Shown here: positions 1 to 40,314 of the stretch, piece by piece
Layout: every line of letters begins with the position of its first letter
Numbering within the stretch: position 1 is the first letter of the stretch
From: a virus
Taxonomy: Duplodnaviria > Heunggongvirae > Uroviricota > Caudoviricetes
Reading direction: 5' to 3' (one strand)
DNA length: 40,314 nucleotides
Virus record (IMG/VR): IMGVR_UViG_2563366990_000017
Location: 1-40,314 of that record
The notes under the pieces: generated by a model
Told to the model about the DNA's origin: nothing
The model's database searches: none
What the model saw: only the letters and a program-made list of their open reading frames with translations
Program-made: the position numbers and the translations under genes

Positions 1-1158
1 ATGCTCACCGTTAAGCAGATTGAAGCAGCAAAGCCGAAAGAAAAACCATATCGCCTTCTCGATGGTAATGGCCTGTACCTTTATGTCCCTGTGTCAGGGA
101 AAAAGGTATGGCAGCTTCGCTACAAGATTGACGGTAAGGAGAAAATCCTGACTGTCGGAAAATATCCGCTTATGACTTTGCAGGAAGCAAGGGATAAGGC
201 ATGGACCGCAAGAAAAGACATCTCGGTTGGCATCGATCCGGTAAAGGCGAAAAAGGCTTCGTCTAACAACAATTCCTTTAGCGCCATTTACAAGGAATGG
301 TACGAGCACAAGAAGCAAGTCTGGTCTGTAGGGTATGCGACTGAACTTGCAAAAATGTTTGATGACGACATTTTACCTATCATCGGCGGCCTTGAAATTC
401 AGGATATTGAGCCGATGCAACTGCTGGAAGTAATCCGCAGATTTGAAGATCGCGGTGCAATGGAGCGAGCCAACAAAGCACGAAGAAGATGCGGCGAGGT
501 TTTCCGTTACGCTATTGTCACCGGAAGGGCTAAATATAACCCGGCACCTGACCTTGCTGACGCCATGAAGGGATACCGCAAGAAGAACTTCCCGTTTCTT
601 CCTGCAGACCAGATCCCGGCATTTAACAAAGCACTGGCAACATTTTCAGGAAGTATCGTATCGCTCATTGCGACCAAAGTTTTACGCTACACAGCCCTCA
701 GAACAAAAGAGCTTCGTTCCATGCTATGGAAGAACGTCGATTTTGAAAACAGGATTATCACCATCGACGCCAATGTGATGAAGGGACGCAAGATTCATGT
801 GGTTCCGATGTCGGACCAGGTGGTTGAACTTCTCACTACGCTAAGCTCCATCACTAAACCAGTATCAGAGTTTGTTTTTGCCGGACGCAACGATAAGAAA
901 AAGCCAATCTGCGAGAACGCGGTGCTACTTGTGATCAAACAAATCGGCTATGAAGGTCTGGAAAGCGGTCACGGATTCAGGCATGAATTCAGCACGATTA
1001 TGAACGAGCACGAATGGCCTGCTGATGCTATTGAAGTGCAACTGGCACATGCCAACGGCGGATCTGTGCGCGGGATTTACAACCATGCACAGTATCTCGA
1101 TAAGCGCAGAGAAATGATGCAATGGTGGGCGGACTGGATTGATGAAAAGGTGGAGTGA
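1..1158 (+). CDS. int: Tyrosine integrase, P4/IntS-like
   Basis: 385-aa ORF with ATG at 1 and TGA at 1156-1158. N-terminus MLTVKQIEAAKPKEKPYRLLDGNGLYLYV is typical of P4-family integrases; C-terminal half has the R..HxxR..Y catalytic pattern (HGFRHEF, RGIYNHAQY). Identity is from recalled similarity. Confidence 0.9.
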   Translation: MLTVKQIEAAKPKEKPYRLLDGNGLYLYVPVSGKKVWQLRYKIDGKEKILTVGKYPLMTLQEARDKAWTARKDISVGIDPVKAKKASSNNNSFSAIYKEWYEHKKQVWSVGYATELAKMFDDDILPIIGGLEIQDIEPMQLLEVIRRFEDRGAMERANKARRRCGEVFRYAIVTGRAKYNPAPDLADAMKGYRKKNFPFLPADQIPAFNKALATFSGSIVSLIATKVLRYTALRTKELRSMLWKNVDFENRIITIDANVMKGRKIHVVPMSDQVVELLTTLSSITKPVSEFVFAGRNDKKKPICENAVLLVIKQIGYEGLESGHGFRHEFSTIMNEHEWPADAIEVQLAHANGGSVRGIYNHAQYLDKRREMMQWWADWIDEKVE

Positions 1159-1311
1159 TCCGCCTTAACAACTATCGAATATCACAAAGCCTTGTAATCC
1201 AGTGCAAAGCTTTGTTTGTCTCAGTTTTGTCTCATCAACCATAGCAAGTCATCGATCGATTGAGACTTGGATGATAGACTTCATGCCTTTGATTATTAGC
1301 TGACAAAAGAA

Positions 1312-1503
1312 ATGTTAAAGCTATTTGCAAAGTACACCTCTATTGGTGTGCTGAACACCCTTTTACACTGGGTGTTTTTTGGTGTTTGTATCCATGCAGC
1401 GCATACAAATCAAGCTATGGCGAACTTCGCAGGTTTCGTTGTGGCTATGAGTTTTAGCTTCTTCGCGAATGCAAAATTCACATTCAAAGCATCGACTTAT
1501 TGA
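1312..1503 (+). pseudogene. gtrA: Truncated gtrA (bactoprenol-linked glucose flippase), N-terminal ~62 codons only
   Basis: MLKLFAKYTSIGVLNTLLHWVFFGVCIHAAHTNQAMANFAGFVVAMSFSFFANAKFTFKAST matches the N-terminal half of phage GtrA (~120 aa full length), then a stop and unrelated AT-rich DNA. No gtrB or gtrC follows. Confidence 0.7.
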
Positions 1504-1599
1504 TCATTTGATAGCATATCCTCTACAGCATTATACGACATAAAATATAATGGAACTGTATTTGTAATTGATTTTAGTAAGAAATGCGAGTGAGAAAAT

Positions 1600-1630
1600 A
1601 AACCTAGTGATAATAATTAACACTAGGTTT
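1600..1630 (-). terminator. Rho-independent terminator downstream of tailspike (possibly bidirectional)
   Basis: Perfect 10-bp inverted repeat aaacctagtg / cactaggttt with an 11-nt loop, directly after the tailspike stop. U-tract on the minus transcript (attttctc), T-rich on plus as well. Confidence 0.6.
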
Positions 1631-1640
1631 ATTATATTTA

Positions 1641-3569
1641 TCAATTCGATAGAGTAACTGAAAGATGAGAGCCAGCTATAACAGTTAATGTATTCCCAGC
1701 CCTGTTATCTATGGTAAAAGCTCCATTAATGAAATCAGTAGAAACTGAGGCAACTACATTTAAAGTAACACTTCCATTAACATCAGGAAGAGTGAATTGC
1801 ATAATATTGCTGCCATTTGGAAGTATAGTACCACTTGGCGCAGTAATTCCTATTACTTGCGTCGTGCTTCCAGCACCACCAAGGTAAGAAATGTTTATAT
1901 TTATTGAAATTCTACTACCTTTAGCGATTGTCATCTGCAACTGATTTATATTTGAACCTATTGCTACTATCTTGTTAGAAGATACAAAATCATTTTTTAT
2001 TGAAAAAACAGGTGTAGCAACACCGATGACTGGTACGTTTGAAAGCTTAACAGGCCTTGGAAGTGATAAAGCCTCCCCTGCTCCTGAGTATGAAAAGTCT
2101 GATATTGAACAATTACCACCATCGGTGCCAGAAAACAATATTCCAGAGGTGTGTGAAGAGTCTGTGCTTATATCAGAAAAATGAATATTTGAAGAACCAT
2201 TACCAACAGTTGCTACAACGTGTCCTGTATTAGTTGTAAACTTCATACCAATAACATCAACTCCAGATATATTATTGCCAATGGCAAAACACACCCCACC
2301 TCCCCCCTTGCAGTAGGTTATCTCACCGCTAAATTTTGCATGACACAATCTCTCGATAGTGGCGTTGTTAAACTTAACCCTACCTCCTATGACTGTATTA
2401 ACATTAATTTCTCTACAATGAGTTGTATTTCCCTCTCCAAAATACATAGCAAATCCAGTATTTGAGTTATTTCCTATGAATCCACCATTGACAGTTAACA
2501 CATATATATCAGAGACATCAAATGTTCTTTCGAAATTATCTATTGTGCAATCGGTAAAATGCCAACCCTCATTATAATAAGGGCCACCGGTTGCAGTACT
2601 ATAAATGCCAATTCCAACAGTATCAGTAGCCGATGTCGCCCCAAATACAATGCTCTTATTACAAGCCAACTCTACTGTTTTCCCTGATGAAACAATCCCA
2701 TTTACGGTATAAAACATGCAGGAATCAATAAATATTTGACGAACTGCTTTTTTTAACAAAAGCGCATATGTAATCATTGAAGATGATACATGAACACCGT
2801 AAAGTCTTATCTGTTTAATATAGTCTTCATTGCTAGGTGTGTCGCTATCACCTTCAGCCTCTAAGAATGCACTTGCCGTTCCTGTAACAATGCAGCTGCC
2901 GCCCCAAATTGTTAATCCGATATTTTTACCATTATACTTAAATATAGGAGAACTACCTGTAGAAGCTGTTAACTTTGATCCGCCAAGATAAATAACCCTG
3001 CCATCAGGTATATTTATTGTTCTTTCAATAAGGTAGTCGGTAGGTTCCATATATACAATTTCACAATCATCAATTGCCATCTGAATAGCCTCGGTTATGT
3101 CTGAGGACTGTGAAATATACATTTCTGGTGTTACATACTTTATTGAATATTTAATTGCATTCTCAATTGTACCATATTTATCTATACCTATTAATGATGC
3201 TCCTGATGTGCTTGAAAGTCTTTGCTCCAGCTGATCAGGGTCATACTTCAGCACATTAGGAAAATAGAACTGCTGCGCACCATATGCATCATAAACAGCC
3301 ATAGAATGGCCTTGCACGGTAACGAATTTGGCAATCTGTCCGTTATATACTGGATACCCAGCGGCATTGATGACGATTGGCTGTGCAACAGGAACGTGAG
3401 AACCATCTTCGTTCTCTACATAAACCTGAATTTGGTTTTCAGGATTTACCGGGTCAGTGTCAATTTTACCGATATAAATTTTTCCATTGGCTACGGCTTT
3501 AAAAGAACGCGCCATAGTGAAGAGTTGCGAAGGCATGCTCACTACAACATTGGCTGTAATGTCTGTCAT
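1641..3569 (-). CDS. Tailspike protein (P22 gp9-like head-binding domain plus divergent beta-helix receptor domain)
   Basis: 642 aa with ATG at 3569 and GGAG RBS. N-terminal ~110 aa ([11 protein letters not shown]...[22 protein letters not shown]...[12 protein letters not shown]...NVLKYDPDQ) closely resembles the P22 tailspike head-binding domain. The rest is AT-rich, N/S/T/G/I-rich repeats typical of a right-handed beta-helix. Confidence 0.85.
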
Positions 3570-3669: not shown

Positions 3670-4005
3670 TCAGTAGTTATGTACTGAAGGAGGTAATTCT
3701 TTATTCTTAAGTCTCATCCATGCGGAAAGATTCGTTGGTCCGTCTGGCTCATTAATATCAACATCTCGTGTATGGTTGATTAAAACATCTCTCGCCATTC
3801 CGATAACATACGAGAACTCATGACCGTAGTCGTAGCATCTGCCGGAATAGTTCGATTGAATTTGTTTTAATGCCGGATACAGTTCACGGAATAATGCCTG
3901 TGAACGGTTGGCATAATCCCATAGCCATACAAGGCTGTTTGCTTCTTTTGCAGAAAGCTCGTTTGCTTTCTTCTCTTGTTTGCCGATAAACTCGCCTTCA
4001 AGCAC
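3670..4005 (-). CDS. Hypothetical protein (111 aa)
   Basis: ORF begins 15 nt after the ant stop but with a GTG start (4005-4003) and a weak RBS. No recognised domain. Confidence 0.4.
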
Positions 4006-4020
4006 TACCCTGTGGATGTA

Positions 4021-4548
4021 CTATACGGCCAGCGGGATTTGTTCAATTGAAAGTTCATCAATGCTGTCAATACCAAAACGCTGATGAACCATATTGTATG
4101 CATCGTCATAGCGAAGTCCTTTCTTTCCTACCAGCATGTTTACTGCATCGCGTAGCGGCGTTCTTTCCTCAACAGTGGTTTTCTTGCCTTTCACATACTC
4201 GCCATGTTTGCGAATTGAAGGTAGAACTTCTGCTGTTACCCACTTGCGGAATTTGTGCGGGACCGAACCTTTATTGACAGCATCGCGGCAGCGCAGAACC
4301 AATGTATACATACCTGATTCGCTAACAATGCTTAGATTCTGCTCACCACCAAGGGTGTAACTTAAAGTTACTCCCTTTTCATCGTCATCAAGTGCAGTAA
4401 TCGCCTTGCGTGAGTTAGTCAGGGTTAAAGCATCACAAACATCTTTTGCTACAAACCACGGCTCACCGCATTTGTTGATGACGCGGATTTCACTGTCGCC
4501 GAATTTGAAGATGGTGAAATCGTTTTGTGCCTTTGCTATACTTTTCAT
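4021..4548 (-). CDS. ant: Antirepressor, Bro-N domain protein
   Basis: Start moved to the internal ATG at 4548 ([24 protein letters not shown]..., a typical Bro-N start) with an AGGAAA RBS. Sits directly downstream of arc as in the P22 immI operon. Confidence 0.75.
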
Positions 4549-4616
4549 GTCAATATTTCCTAATCCGATTTGTTGATACCGAAGCCCTGACTGTTCCCGC
4601 AGTTGGGGCTTCAACT

Positions 4617-22989: not shown

Positions 22990-23065
22990 TGGTGCTGGTT
23001 AACGGACTTGAACCGCTACCCATTCGCTTACAAGGCGACTGCTCTACCATTGGAGCTAAACCAGC
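22990..23065 (-). tRNA. tRNA, anticodon UGU (Thr) by manual folding
   Basis: 76 nt on the minus strand: acceptor GCTGGTT/AACCAGC, D-stem GCTC/GAGC, anticodon loop CTTGTAA, T-arm AGCGG-TTCAAGT-CCGTT, discriminator A, CCA. One mismatch at the first anticodon-stem pair. Not verified computationally. Confidence 0.5.
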
Positions 23066-23070
23066 ATATT

Positions 23071-23145
23071 TGGCGGGACAGCATGGGCTCGAACCACGAT
23101 AAGAAGGTTAACAGCCTTCCGTAATGACCTTTATACGACTTACCC
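23071..23145 (-). tRNA. tRNA-like sequence, anticodon GUU (Asn), possibly a pseudo-tRNA
   Basis: 75 nt on the minus strand: perfect anticodon stem GAAGG/CCTTC with loop CTGTTAA, T-arm CGTGG-TTCGAGC-CCATG, 3' CCA. Acceptor stem has 2 mismatches and the D-stem is weak. Confidence 0.35.
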
Positions 23146-38336: not shown

Positions 38337-38537
38337 ATGCAACACGAACTACAACCTGATTCACTGGTTGATTTGAAATTCATCATGGCTGATACTGGCT
38401 TTGGTAAAACCTTCATCTATGACCGGATTAAGTCCGGCGACCTGCCAAAAGCCAAAGTTATCCACGGGCGAGCAAGATGGTTATATCGTGACCATTGTGA
38501 ATTCAAAAATAAGCTCTTAAGCCGCGCCAATGGGTAA
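38337..38537 (+). CDS. xis: AlpA-family excisionase / DNA-binding protein
   Basis: 66 aa, LVDLKFIMADTGFGKTFIYDRIKSGDLPKAKVIHGRARWLYRDHCEF fits the AlpA/Xis winged-helix pattern. Last gene of the plus-strand early operon at the prophage end. Confidence 0.7.
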   Translation: MQHELQPDSLVDLKFIMADTGFGKTFIYDRIKSGDLPKAKVIHGRARWLYRDHCEFKNKLLSRANG

Positions 38538-38610
38538 AATAGCGGGTAAAATATTTCTCACATCTAAAAAACACCATTCCAATCAATCCCCTGTCGCTTC
38601 AAGTAGATGT

Positions 38611-38625
38611 CTGCAGGGGACACCA
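38611..38625 (+). other. Putative attR core: tRNA 3' end (acceptor stem plus CCA)
   Basis: ctgcaggggacacca reads as T-stem 3' strand, acceptor strand AGGGGAC, discriminator A and CCA. From memory this matches the 3' end of E. coli tRNA-Arg argW, the usual target of IntS-type integrases. Confidence 0.5.
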
Positions 38626-39066: not shown

Positions 39067-40314
39067 CTATATTGCTGAAGGTACAGGCGTTTCCATAACT
39101 ATTTGCTCGCGTTTTTTACTCAGGAAGAAAATGCCAAATAGCAACATCAGGCAGACAATACCCGAAATTGCGAAGAAAACTGTCTGGTAGCCTGCGTGGT
39201 CAAAGAGTATCCCAGTCGGCGTTGAAAGCAGCACAATCCCAAGCGAACTGGCAATTTGAAAACCAATCAGAAAGATCGTCGACGACAGGCGCTTATCAAA
39301 GTTTGCCACGCTGTATTTGAAGACGGATATGACACAAAGTGGAACCTCAATGGCATGTAACAGCTTCACTAATGAAATAATCCAGGGGTTAACGAACAGC
39401 GCGCAGGAAAGGATACGCAACGCCATAATCACAACACCGATAAGTAATGCATTTTTTGGCCCTACCCGATTCACAAAGAAAGGAATAATCGCCATGCACA
39501 GCGCTTCGAGTACCACCTGGAATGAGTTGAGATAACCATACAGGCGCGTTCCTACATCGTGTGATTCGAATAAACCTGCATAAAAGACAGGAAAGAGTTG
39601 TTGATCAAAAATGTTATAGAAAGACCACGTCCCCACAATAAATATGACAAAAACCCAGAAGTTTCGATCCTTGAAAACTGCGATAAAATCCTCTTTTTTT
39701 ACCCCTCCCGCATCCGCCGCTATGCACTGGTGATCCTTATCTTTAAAACGCATGTTGATCATCATAAATACAGCGCCAAATAGCGAGACCAACCAGAAGT
39801 TGATATGGGGACTGATACTAAAAAATATACCAGCAAAGAACGCGCCAATAGCATAGCCAAAAGATCCCCAGGCGCGCGCTGTTCCATATTCGAAATGAAA
39901 ATTTCGCGCCATTTTTTCGGTGAAGCTGTCAAGCAAACCGCATCCCGCCAGATACCCCAGGCCAAAAAAGAGCGCCCCCAGAATTAGACCTACAGAAAAA
40001 TTGCTTTGCAGTAACGGTTCATAAACGTAAATCATAAACGGTCCGGTCAAGACCAGAATGAAACTCATACACCAGATGAGCGGTTTCTTCAGACCGAGTT
40101 TATCCTGAACGATGCCGTAGAACATCATAAATAGAATGCTGGTAAACTGGTTGACCGAATAAAGTGTACCTAATTCCGTCCCTGTTAATCCTAGATGTCC
40201 TTTCAGCCAAATAGCGTATAACGACCACCACAGCGACCAGGAAATAAAAAAGAGAAATGAGTAACTGGATGCAAAACGATAGTACGCATTTCTGAATGGA
40301 ATATTCAGTGCCAT
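39067..40314 (-). CDS. cscB: Sucrose permease, LacY-family MFS oligosaccharide:H+ symporter (bacterial flank)
   Basis: 415 aa with 12 predicted TM helices and LacY-like motifs. From memory resembles CscB, whose locus lies next to argW in csc-positive E. coli. Start codon at the window edge (40312-40314). Confidence 0.75.
   Translation of the reverse strand: MALNIPFRNAYYRFASSYSFLFFISWSLWWSLYAIWLKGHLGLTGTELGTLYSVNQFTSILFMMFYGIVQDKLGLKKPLIWCMSFILVLTGPFMIYVYEPLLQSNFSVGLILGALFFGLGYLAGCGLLDSFTEKMARNFHFEYGTARAWGSFGYAIGAFFAGIFFSISPHINFWLVSLFGAVFMMINMRFKDKDHQCIAADAGGVKKEDFIAVFKDRNFWVFVIFIVGTWSFYNIFDQQLFPVFYAGLFESHDVGTRLYGYLNSFQVVLEALCMAIIPFFVNRVGPKNALLIGVVIMALRILSCALFVNPWIISLVKLLHAIEVPLCVISVFKYSVANFDKRLSSTIFLIGFQIASSLGIVLLSTPTGILFDHAGYQTVFFAISGIVCLMLLFGIFFLSKKREQIVMETPVPSAI

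Follow-up and report, generated by a model that had tools for sequence, protein, structure and literature searches.

The region between the integrase gene int and the convergent tailspike gene of a P22-like prophage (positions 1159-1640) is very probably the scar of a gtrA-gtrB-gtrC O-antigen glucosylation operon which formerly occupied this site. This high confidence applies to the explanation as a whole, i.e. a single deletion, an in-frame fusion, its later spread, a later nonsense mutation and the absence of glucosylation. The prophage is of the Lederbergvirus type, resides in an E. coli-like chromosome and was analysed in a stretch of 40,314 nt, in the following called the window. According to the proposed history, one event of about 2.4 kb would have joined codon 62 of gtrA to codon 444 of a 474-codon gtrC. 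GtrA would thereby have lost its transmembrane (TM) helices 3-4 and GtrC its entire catalytic and membrane domain, and GtrB would have been removed completely. As the join is in frame, a 93-codon open reading frame (ORF) was left, which would keep the original gtr promoter region and the original terminator common to gtrC and the tailspike gene. Linked to the receptor-binding module of the tailspike, the scar would then have reached several P22-like backbones, and the lineage of the window would later have gained a TGC to TGA change, leaving 63 codons. Such a scar would be unable to glucosylate the O-antigen. At most, it would be transcribed from the gtr promoter to the hairpin, which would go on terminating tailspike transcription.

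The locus is a new and precisely mapped instance of a known process, since both gtr decay and the mosaic exchange of tailspikes are already well documented. With both breakpoints mapped, it provides a clean case in which a receptor-modifying operon is lost and the linked tailspike receptor-binding module stays and spreads. For annotation, this means that the ORF should be described as a gtrA/gtrC fusion pseudogene and not as a "GtrA family protein", and that serotype conversion via a gtr cassette should not be predicted for this prophage. All features of the region are compiled in Table 1.

Table 1. Features of the region between int and the tailspike gene, with coordinates of the window.
Feature	Position	Strand	Evidence and remarks
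int, IntS/P4-type prophage integrase	1-1158	+	Pfam PF00589 Phage_integrase, PF22022, PF13356 Arm-DNA-bind_3
Inferred gtr promoter	1252-1280	+	-35 TCGATC 1252-1257, -10 TAGACT 1275-1280; column-by-column alignment to P22
ORF, 63 aa	1312-1503	+	PF04138 GtrA_DPMS_TM, profile positions 1-55 of 117 only
gtrA-derived stretch	1312-1497	+	Codons 1-62, TM helices 1-2 of a 120-aa four-helix protein
Deletion junction, in frame	1497-1498	+	Side-by-side junction sequences
gtrC-derived stretch	1498-1593	+	Last 31 codons (444-474) and native stop TGA 1591-1593
Secondary nonsense codon TGA	1501-1503	+	TGC (Cys) in other scar alleles, TGT (Cys) in intact gtrC
Hairpin, inferred bidirectional terminator of the convergent gtr operon and tailspike gene	1597-1633	both
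P22-type tailspike, 642 aa	1641-3569	-	PF09008
Tailspike receptor-binding domain	1641-3227	-	Residues 115-642
Tailspike head-binding domain	3228-3569	-

Prophage setting and integration site

Over 55-59% of its first 25 kb, the window is 95-96% identical to the phages Kapi1, phiv205-1 and CUS-3. It begins at the ATG of int. In the related contigs L006, L009 and L018, the gene order yfdC-argW-int is found right upstream of this position, outside the window itself, and a repeat of the 3' end of argW forms the attR core (tctgcaggggacacca) at 38610-38625. The integration site is therefore located on the far side of int, and positions 1159-1311 are not attP. An attP in this interval, considered by analogy with P22 and SfV, was rejected on these grounds; in both phages a tRNA-derived attP lies between int and gtrA, in contrast to the attachment site across int in the window.

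The right end of the prophage carries xis (38337-38537), and beyond attR follows a host gene for a cscB-like sucrose permease (39067-40314, minus strand). Genes for tRNA-Thr(TGT) and tRNA-Asn(GTT) are prophage-borne (22990-23145, minus strand). The antirepressor gene ant (3670-4614, minus strand) contains an in-frame TAG at 4021-4023, where the related phage L015 encodes Glu; this is a second nonsense mutation in the prophage that carries the scar.

The ORF downstream of int is a fragment of gtrA

The ORF following int matches the GtrA profile with an E-value of 2.5e-10 and 41 bits (cut-off 26.1), and only the N-terminal half of the family is covered, as the earlier note had recognised. On the DNA level, identity is 94% to gtrA of the E. 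coli BUCT2930 prophage and 90% to gtrA of phage HF4s, spanning the end of int and the intergenic region into gtrA. Shigella phage gtrA sequences match from base 1186 onward with 85-86% identity. The 62-aa GtrA part is 92% identical to residues 1-62 of HF4s GtrA. In comparisons with HF4s, SfV/SfI/SfII/SfIV and the CPS-53-type yfdG (matched in 1280 of 5426 complete E. coli genomes), homology stops at 1497, the last base of codon 62, on both DNA and protein level. Past this codon, intact GtrA continues as ...AST/TTMRYMLYVG..., in place of ...AST/Y-stop in the window.

Compared with the full-length protein of about 120 aa and four helices, the ORF has 63 aa in the window and 93 aa in its sister alleles, of which 62 are derived from GtrA, and only two hydrophobic segments are left. 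When GtrA, GtrB and GtrC of HF4s and SfV were used as tblastn queries against the 40-kb window, only GtrA residues 1-62 were recovered. The C-terminal half of GtrA was found in none of the frames, which rules out a frameshifted full-length gtrA. GtrB gave nothing better than E = 1.8, so the claimed absence of gtrB is borne out and no gtrB stands beside gtrA. The ORF is thus a fragment of a member of the GtrA family, not a functional member.

The AT-rich flank is the 3' end of gtrC

Downstream of the stop codon, positions 1498-1640 have a G+C content of 25% compared to 46% in the whole window. The earlier note had described this flank as AT-rich non-coding DNA and had listed gtrC as absent; the stop codon and the base composition are as described, but the greater part of the flank derives from coding sequence for the C-terminus of GtrC. 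Its identity was traced via relatives of the tailspike receptor-binding domain and the genes downstream of them. Three contigs (L019, L020 and L021) have tailspike receptor-binding domains with 84-90% identity to that of the window, and each has a convergent gene for a 472-474 aa PF14264 protein exactly 47 nt past the tailspike gene. The gap between 1593 and 1641 in the window is likewise 47 nt. A blastn comparison of 1498-1900 with these contigs yields alignments of 88.6-89.3% identity which start exactly at 1498 and run through the spacer into the tailspike gene. For the last 31 gtrC codons, identity to the three contigs is 94% on the DNA level and 84% on the protein level. With BLASTP, the 31-aa tail aligns to residues 444-474 of the 474-aa GtrC (E 5e-16), flush at both C-termini. 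The C-terminus of GtrC reads ...IKIEYCSFENISSTALYDIKYNGIVFVIDFSKKCE-stop and is matched in the window by the tail in the gtrA frame. This frame contains no stop codon in the AT-rich stretch except the window-specific TGA; the other two frames contain 2 and 11.

In all three contigs gtrB comes next after gtrC, followed by a gtrA that is complete in L020, cut by the contig end in L021 and absent in L019. In L019 (5849-8187), gtrB and gtrC stand behind a related tailspike, and a holin gene is located 217 nt past gtrB. The parental GtrC carries the domain PF14264 Glucos_trans_II (GtrC type) at residues 25-323. Residues 444-474 are all that remains of it in the window, so that a type-specific gtrC with a glucosyltransferase domain is no longer present.

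Direct searches with the flank did not reveal its origin. Positions 1480-1680 showed only chance matches to deposited phages (DNA, distant mode), 1490-1645 had no match in the 5426 complete E. coli genomes, and 1498-3300 matched complete E. coli genomes only at the boundary of the head-binding domain. An exact 23-mer from the tail was absent from genome_contigs and metagenome_contigs, because the TGC of the scar corresponds to TGT in intact gtrC. A protein search with a 41-aa version of the tail returned no candidates, and tblastn of the tail against phages returned no match. Among 1.84 billion representative proteins, HMMER with the 32-aa tail retrieved no more than the cluster of the tail itself and P0128, a spurious repeat protein. 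Local alignments of the flank with the 3' ends of gtrC of HF4s, BUCT2930, SfV and P22 were no better than those of shuffled sequence, and no Rfam family was detected in 1100-1750.

Junction and origin of the fusion

Alignment to intact gtr operons, which the earlier note had suggested, maps the breakpoints to 1497 in gtrA and 1498 in gtrC. The missing stretch extends from gtrA codon 63 through gtrC codon 443; if the operon of L020, with 2698 nt from start to stop codon, is taken as a model, the window lacks 2416 nt. The complete order int-gtrA-gtrB-gtrC-tailspike is present in phage HF4s and in the E. coli BUCT2930 prophage. Together with the close match of the BUCT2930 sequence up to 1497, these layouts uphold the claim that an O-antigen glucosylation cassette was once carried and lost. 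Searches found no intact P22-like parent which combines this gtrA allele with gtrB, the 474-aa gtrC and the 642-aa tailspike. The 474-aa GtrC had no close relative in IMG/VR, JGI metagenomes or complete E. coli genomes, and its best matches in deposited phages reach only 26-28% identity.

The gtrA genes beside this gtrC in L020 and L021 are 72-82% identical to that of the scar, compared to 89% on the side of gtrC and the tailspike, and so the join could also have been made between two different operons. Instead of a deletion within one operon, illegitimate recombination of two phages would then have joined an incoming tailspike receptor-binding domain, with terminator and gtrC, inside a resident CPS-53-type gtrA. 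This would agree with the 94% identity of the left side to gtrA of the E. coli P22-like or CPS-53 type, with the mobility of the receptor-binding domain among phage types with different N-terminal adaptors, and with an SfV-like tract that one scar allele acquired later, by recombination, at its 5' end (both described below). Furthermore, no microhomology was seen at the junction in comparison with the available parental stand-ins. However, gtrA and gtrB are conserved and freely recombining genes, so that a mosaic intact parent is equally plausible. The in-frame outcome and the exact operon boundaries with promoter and terminator are what a simple internal deletion would produce, and a parental configuration of either kind was not recovered. 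Hence, we regard the two-phage origin as a serious but rather unlikely alternative and consider that the fusion probably arose by an intramolecular deletion.

Promoter region and the question of phase variation

Phase variation of gtrABC in P22 is controlled by a Dam/OxyR switch (Broadbent et al. 2010, PMC2909390). The P22 gtr promoter has been mapped experimentally, with the transcription start 25 bp upstream of the ATG and GATC4 at -33 (PMC2909390). In the P22 sequence we find four GATC sites in two pairs, at -135, -122, -71 and -58 from the ATG, as well as three OxyR half-sites which score 8, 10 and 8 of 10; this layout agrees with the published switch (PMC2909390).

Exactly one GATC occurs in positions 1159-1311 of the window, at 1254-1257 as the earlier note had reported. 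Located at -58 from the ATG, it falls within the -35 hexamer and corresponds in the alignment to P22 GATC4. The GATC density of the window leads one to expect about 0.3 sites in this interval, and a single site in 153 bp is unremarkable. The -10 element and the start region are conserved as well (TAGACTTCATGCCTTT in comparison with TACACTTCAGACCTTT). Unlike P22, the window has neither four GATC sites in two pairs nor three OxyR half-sites. A 15-mer scan found no half-site of at least 7/10 in the window or in the intact relatives HF4s, BUCT2930 and SfV. HF4s and BUCT2930, whose operons are intact, likewise have this one GATC alone; SfV is without any. Since intact relatives lack the switch as well, its absence is a trait of the E. 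coli/Shigella gtr lineage and not a sign of decay. In addition, one gtr operon described from Salmonella has a single GATC and lacks a recognisable OxyR site (PMC2909390).

The GATC can thus no longer be taken for a vestige of Dam/OxyR control, as had been suggested. The earlier interpretation in its literal form, namely a plain truncation of gtrA in front of an unrelated AT-rich non-coding flank with the GATC as a decayed phase-variation remnant, does account for the stop past codon 63, the low G+C content of 1498-1640 and the shared position of the window GATC and P22 GATC4. Against it stand gtrC codons 444-474 in the flank and the data on GATC and OxyR sites given above, and we consider it extremely improbable. 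In the explanation preferred here, with the gtr operon reduced by a deletion, the promoter looks intact in sequence, so the scar is probably still transcribed.

The direct repeat TTTGTCTCA occupies 1215-1223 and again 1226-1234, and TGAGAC at 1261-1266 is its inverted partner; the copies flank the -35 element with its GATC. The repeat around the -35 element is conserved in the intact gtr operons of E. coli and SfV, and L004 is without one copy (11-nt gap). The repeats at 1215-1266 may be an operator for an unknown regulator.

The probable shared terminator

The hairpin between the gtrC stop codon and the tailspike gene folds with -19.1 kcal/mol on the plus strand (z = -5.9) and -16.4 kcal/mol on the minus strand (z = -5.5). 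It is kept behind the intact gtrC in L019-L021, with one compensatory change of an A-U to a G-C pair. The stem is strong, the U-run is interrupted on both strands, and a simple consensus scan reported no terminator. On the basis of fold and conservation, the hairpin is likely a bidirectional terminator, in accordance with the earlier statement that the flank ends in the tailspike terminator.

Alleles of the scar and the secondary stop codon

The 90%-identity cluster of the window's protein comprises eight distinct sequences. Seven of them have 93 aa, and only that of the window has 63 aa. Its TGA allele was found in one other contig only (L005), which is identical over 601 nt. With the direction of change set by intact gtrC, Leu and Gly in the window are ancestral GtrC residues, in place of which the other scar alleles share the derived Phe and Lys, and the TGA is derived. 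This identifies the window as a separate branch of the scar clade, in which the nonsense mutation came later. As judged from these alleles, the stop after codon 63 is secondary and does not appear to be part of the original loss. All scar alleles show the same junction together with L36M and V46M, both lacking in intact GtrA, which points to a single origin of the scar.

About 16 substitutions could be placed within the scar clade, and all of them are non-synonymous or nonsense. A comparison of two intact gtrA genes over the same 62 codons shows 6 synonymous differences and not a single non-synonymous one, a contrast that is inflated because the scar alleles were sampled as distinct protein sequences. 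Contigs with the same protein are also without synonymous differences, and the pattern therefore fits neutral decay.

Is the fusion ORF functional?

Alternatively, the 93-aa GtrA(1-62)-GtrC(444-474) fusion could be a functional small inner-membrane protein, for instance one that interferes with a resident Gtr system, with the window copy knocked out. This view is supported by the in-frame join, by an ORF that stays open in seven of the eight protein alleles and in several phage backbones, and by a promoter region that is 100% conserved among the window, L006 and L022. However, the alleles are so close to each other that an open frame needs no selection. The changes within the clade are all non-synonymous; some of them, such as A52E, G to K and C to Y, are non-conservative. 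Between the window and L006, the tail diverges by 4.2% compared to 1.7% for the adjacent tailspike domain. Moreover, only two of four TM helices and no GtrC domain are left, the window allele has a nonsense codon, and no homologue outside the single cluster exists among the 1.84 billion representative proteins. A functional fusion is accordingly very unlikely in our view. The scar is an ordinary case of gene decay, a pseudogene, and judged by its sequence it is probably functionless.

Spread of the scar with the tailspike module

At least 10 further contigs from different samples carry the junction, and apart from the TGA allele of L005 the 93-codon ORF is open in them. Carriers are an IMG/VR prophage (L004), an NCBI E. 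coli assembly (L022) and gut-metagenome and Logan contigs (L006-L013). In these the junction is always found beside the same 642-aa tailspike and at argW. The occurrence in independent assemblies rules out an assembly artefact. Between the scar loci, the segment that begins with the upstream region and includes the receptor-binding domain shows 98-100% identity, compared to 95-96% for the flanking int and 88-94% for the head-binding domain; the adjoining immI and ejection-protein genes differ. The same junction and tailspike module across different backbones show that the loss is older than this prophage and that the scar hitch-hikes with the module. The earlier view that the cassette was lost in this very prophage has to be revised in this point. 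In L004, the 5' UTR and the first codons are SfV-like, which indicates a later recombination with an intact gtrA allele.

The 93-codon scar of L022 (7930-8411, GCA_001748915.1) has no gene call, and in other collections it appears as a GtrA-family protein. Protein databases therefore under-count this scar.

The receptor-binding domain shows 43-90% identity to the proteins P0131-P0155, which carry PF18668, PF03906 or no adaptor where P22 has its head-binding domain. One receptor-binding domain on different N-terminal adaptors implies that the domain moves between phage types. No relative of the tailspike domain was found in a one-genome-per-species collection. In the intact operons of L019-L021, the tailspikes have non-P22 N-terminal adaptors such as PF18668 and the gtrA is the diverged allele mentioned above; the receptor-binding domain and its gtrC thus pass jointly between phages whose tail adaptors differ. 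It is conceivable that receptor-binding domain, terminator and matching gtrC operon form a mobile cassette for recognising and modifying the receptor, and that the 93-aa fusion is kept as an active part of it. The scar would then not be inert and could act, for example, as a dominant-negative two-helix fragment which blocks resident GtrA-dependent glucosylation. We give this combined idea hardly any credence. That the receptor-binding domain and gtrC are transferred as one unit is already visible in the sequences compared here; the half of the idea that concerns a functional fusion is not supported.

Comparison with known gtr systems and decayed operons

In its position beside int, convergent with the tailspike gene and with a probable common terminator, the scar corresponds to the gtrABC operons of HF4s, BUCT2930, SfV and P22. 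Its closest counterparts are the intact gtrABC cassettes of P22-like E. coli phages and prophages at argW, i.e. HF4s (MT833387), the BUCT2930 prophage and CPS-53 with yfdG-yfdH-yfdI. The window shares with this group the placement of int, gtrA-gtrB-gtrC and the convergent tailspike gene as well as the upstream region with a single GATC. It differs from them by the missing 2.4 kb and by its different gtrC type. P22 is more distant. Its gtrA is homologous to that of the window (pN 0.18 and pS 0.80 over 62 codons), and both have the core promoter with GATC in the -35 element, the convergent tailspike gene and the probable common terminator, whereas of the two only P22 has the GATC pairs and OxyR half-sites.

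Decayed gtr operons are known from Salmonella, where gtrC pseudogenes and a conserved gtrB deletion have been described (Davies et al. 2013, PMC3688519). These are likewise horizontally acquired gtr operons inactivated by mutation (PMC3688519). In contrast to the premature stops or the deletion within gtrB in these cases, the scar of the window is a single deletion fusing gtrA to the end of gtrC.

Among sequenced phages, Kapi1 (MT813197, PMC8787464) is the closest overall; 59% of the first 25 kb can be aligned to it at 96% identity. Like the window, it is P22-like, uses argW, has the same int and virion modules and no recognisable seroconversion gene between tailspike and int. It differs in having another tailspike, an unrelated 35-aa ORF (hyp24) and no gtrA remnant, and its similarity to the window breaks off within int, at 1144. 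The contents of the slot between tailspike and int vary in related phages: int follows directly after the tailspike gene in L015, Kapi1 has the 35-aa ORF, and HF4s has gtrABC. In Kapi1 the equivalent slot is filled by hyp24 (MCDIIRDGIPAYTDNKHLTKASSKVVVEYAFKKN; L003, 4483-4587), which might be the remaining 3' end of an O-antigen-modifying gene that was lost.
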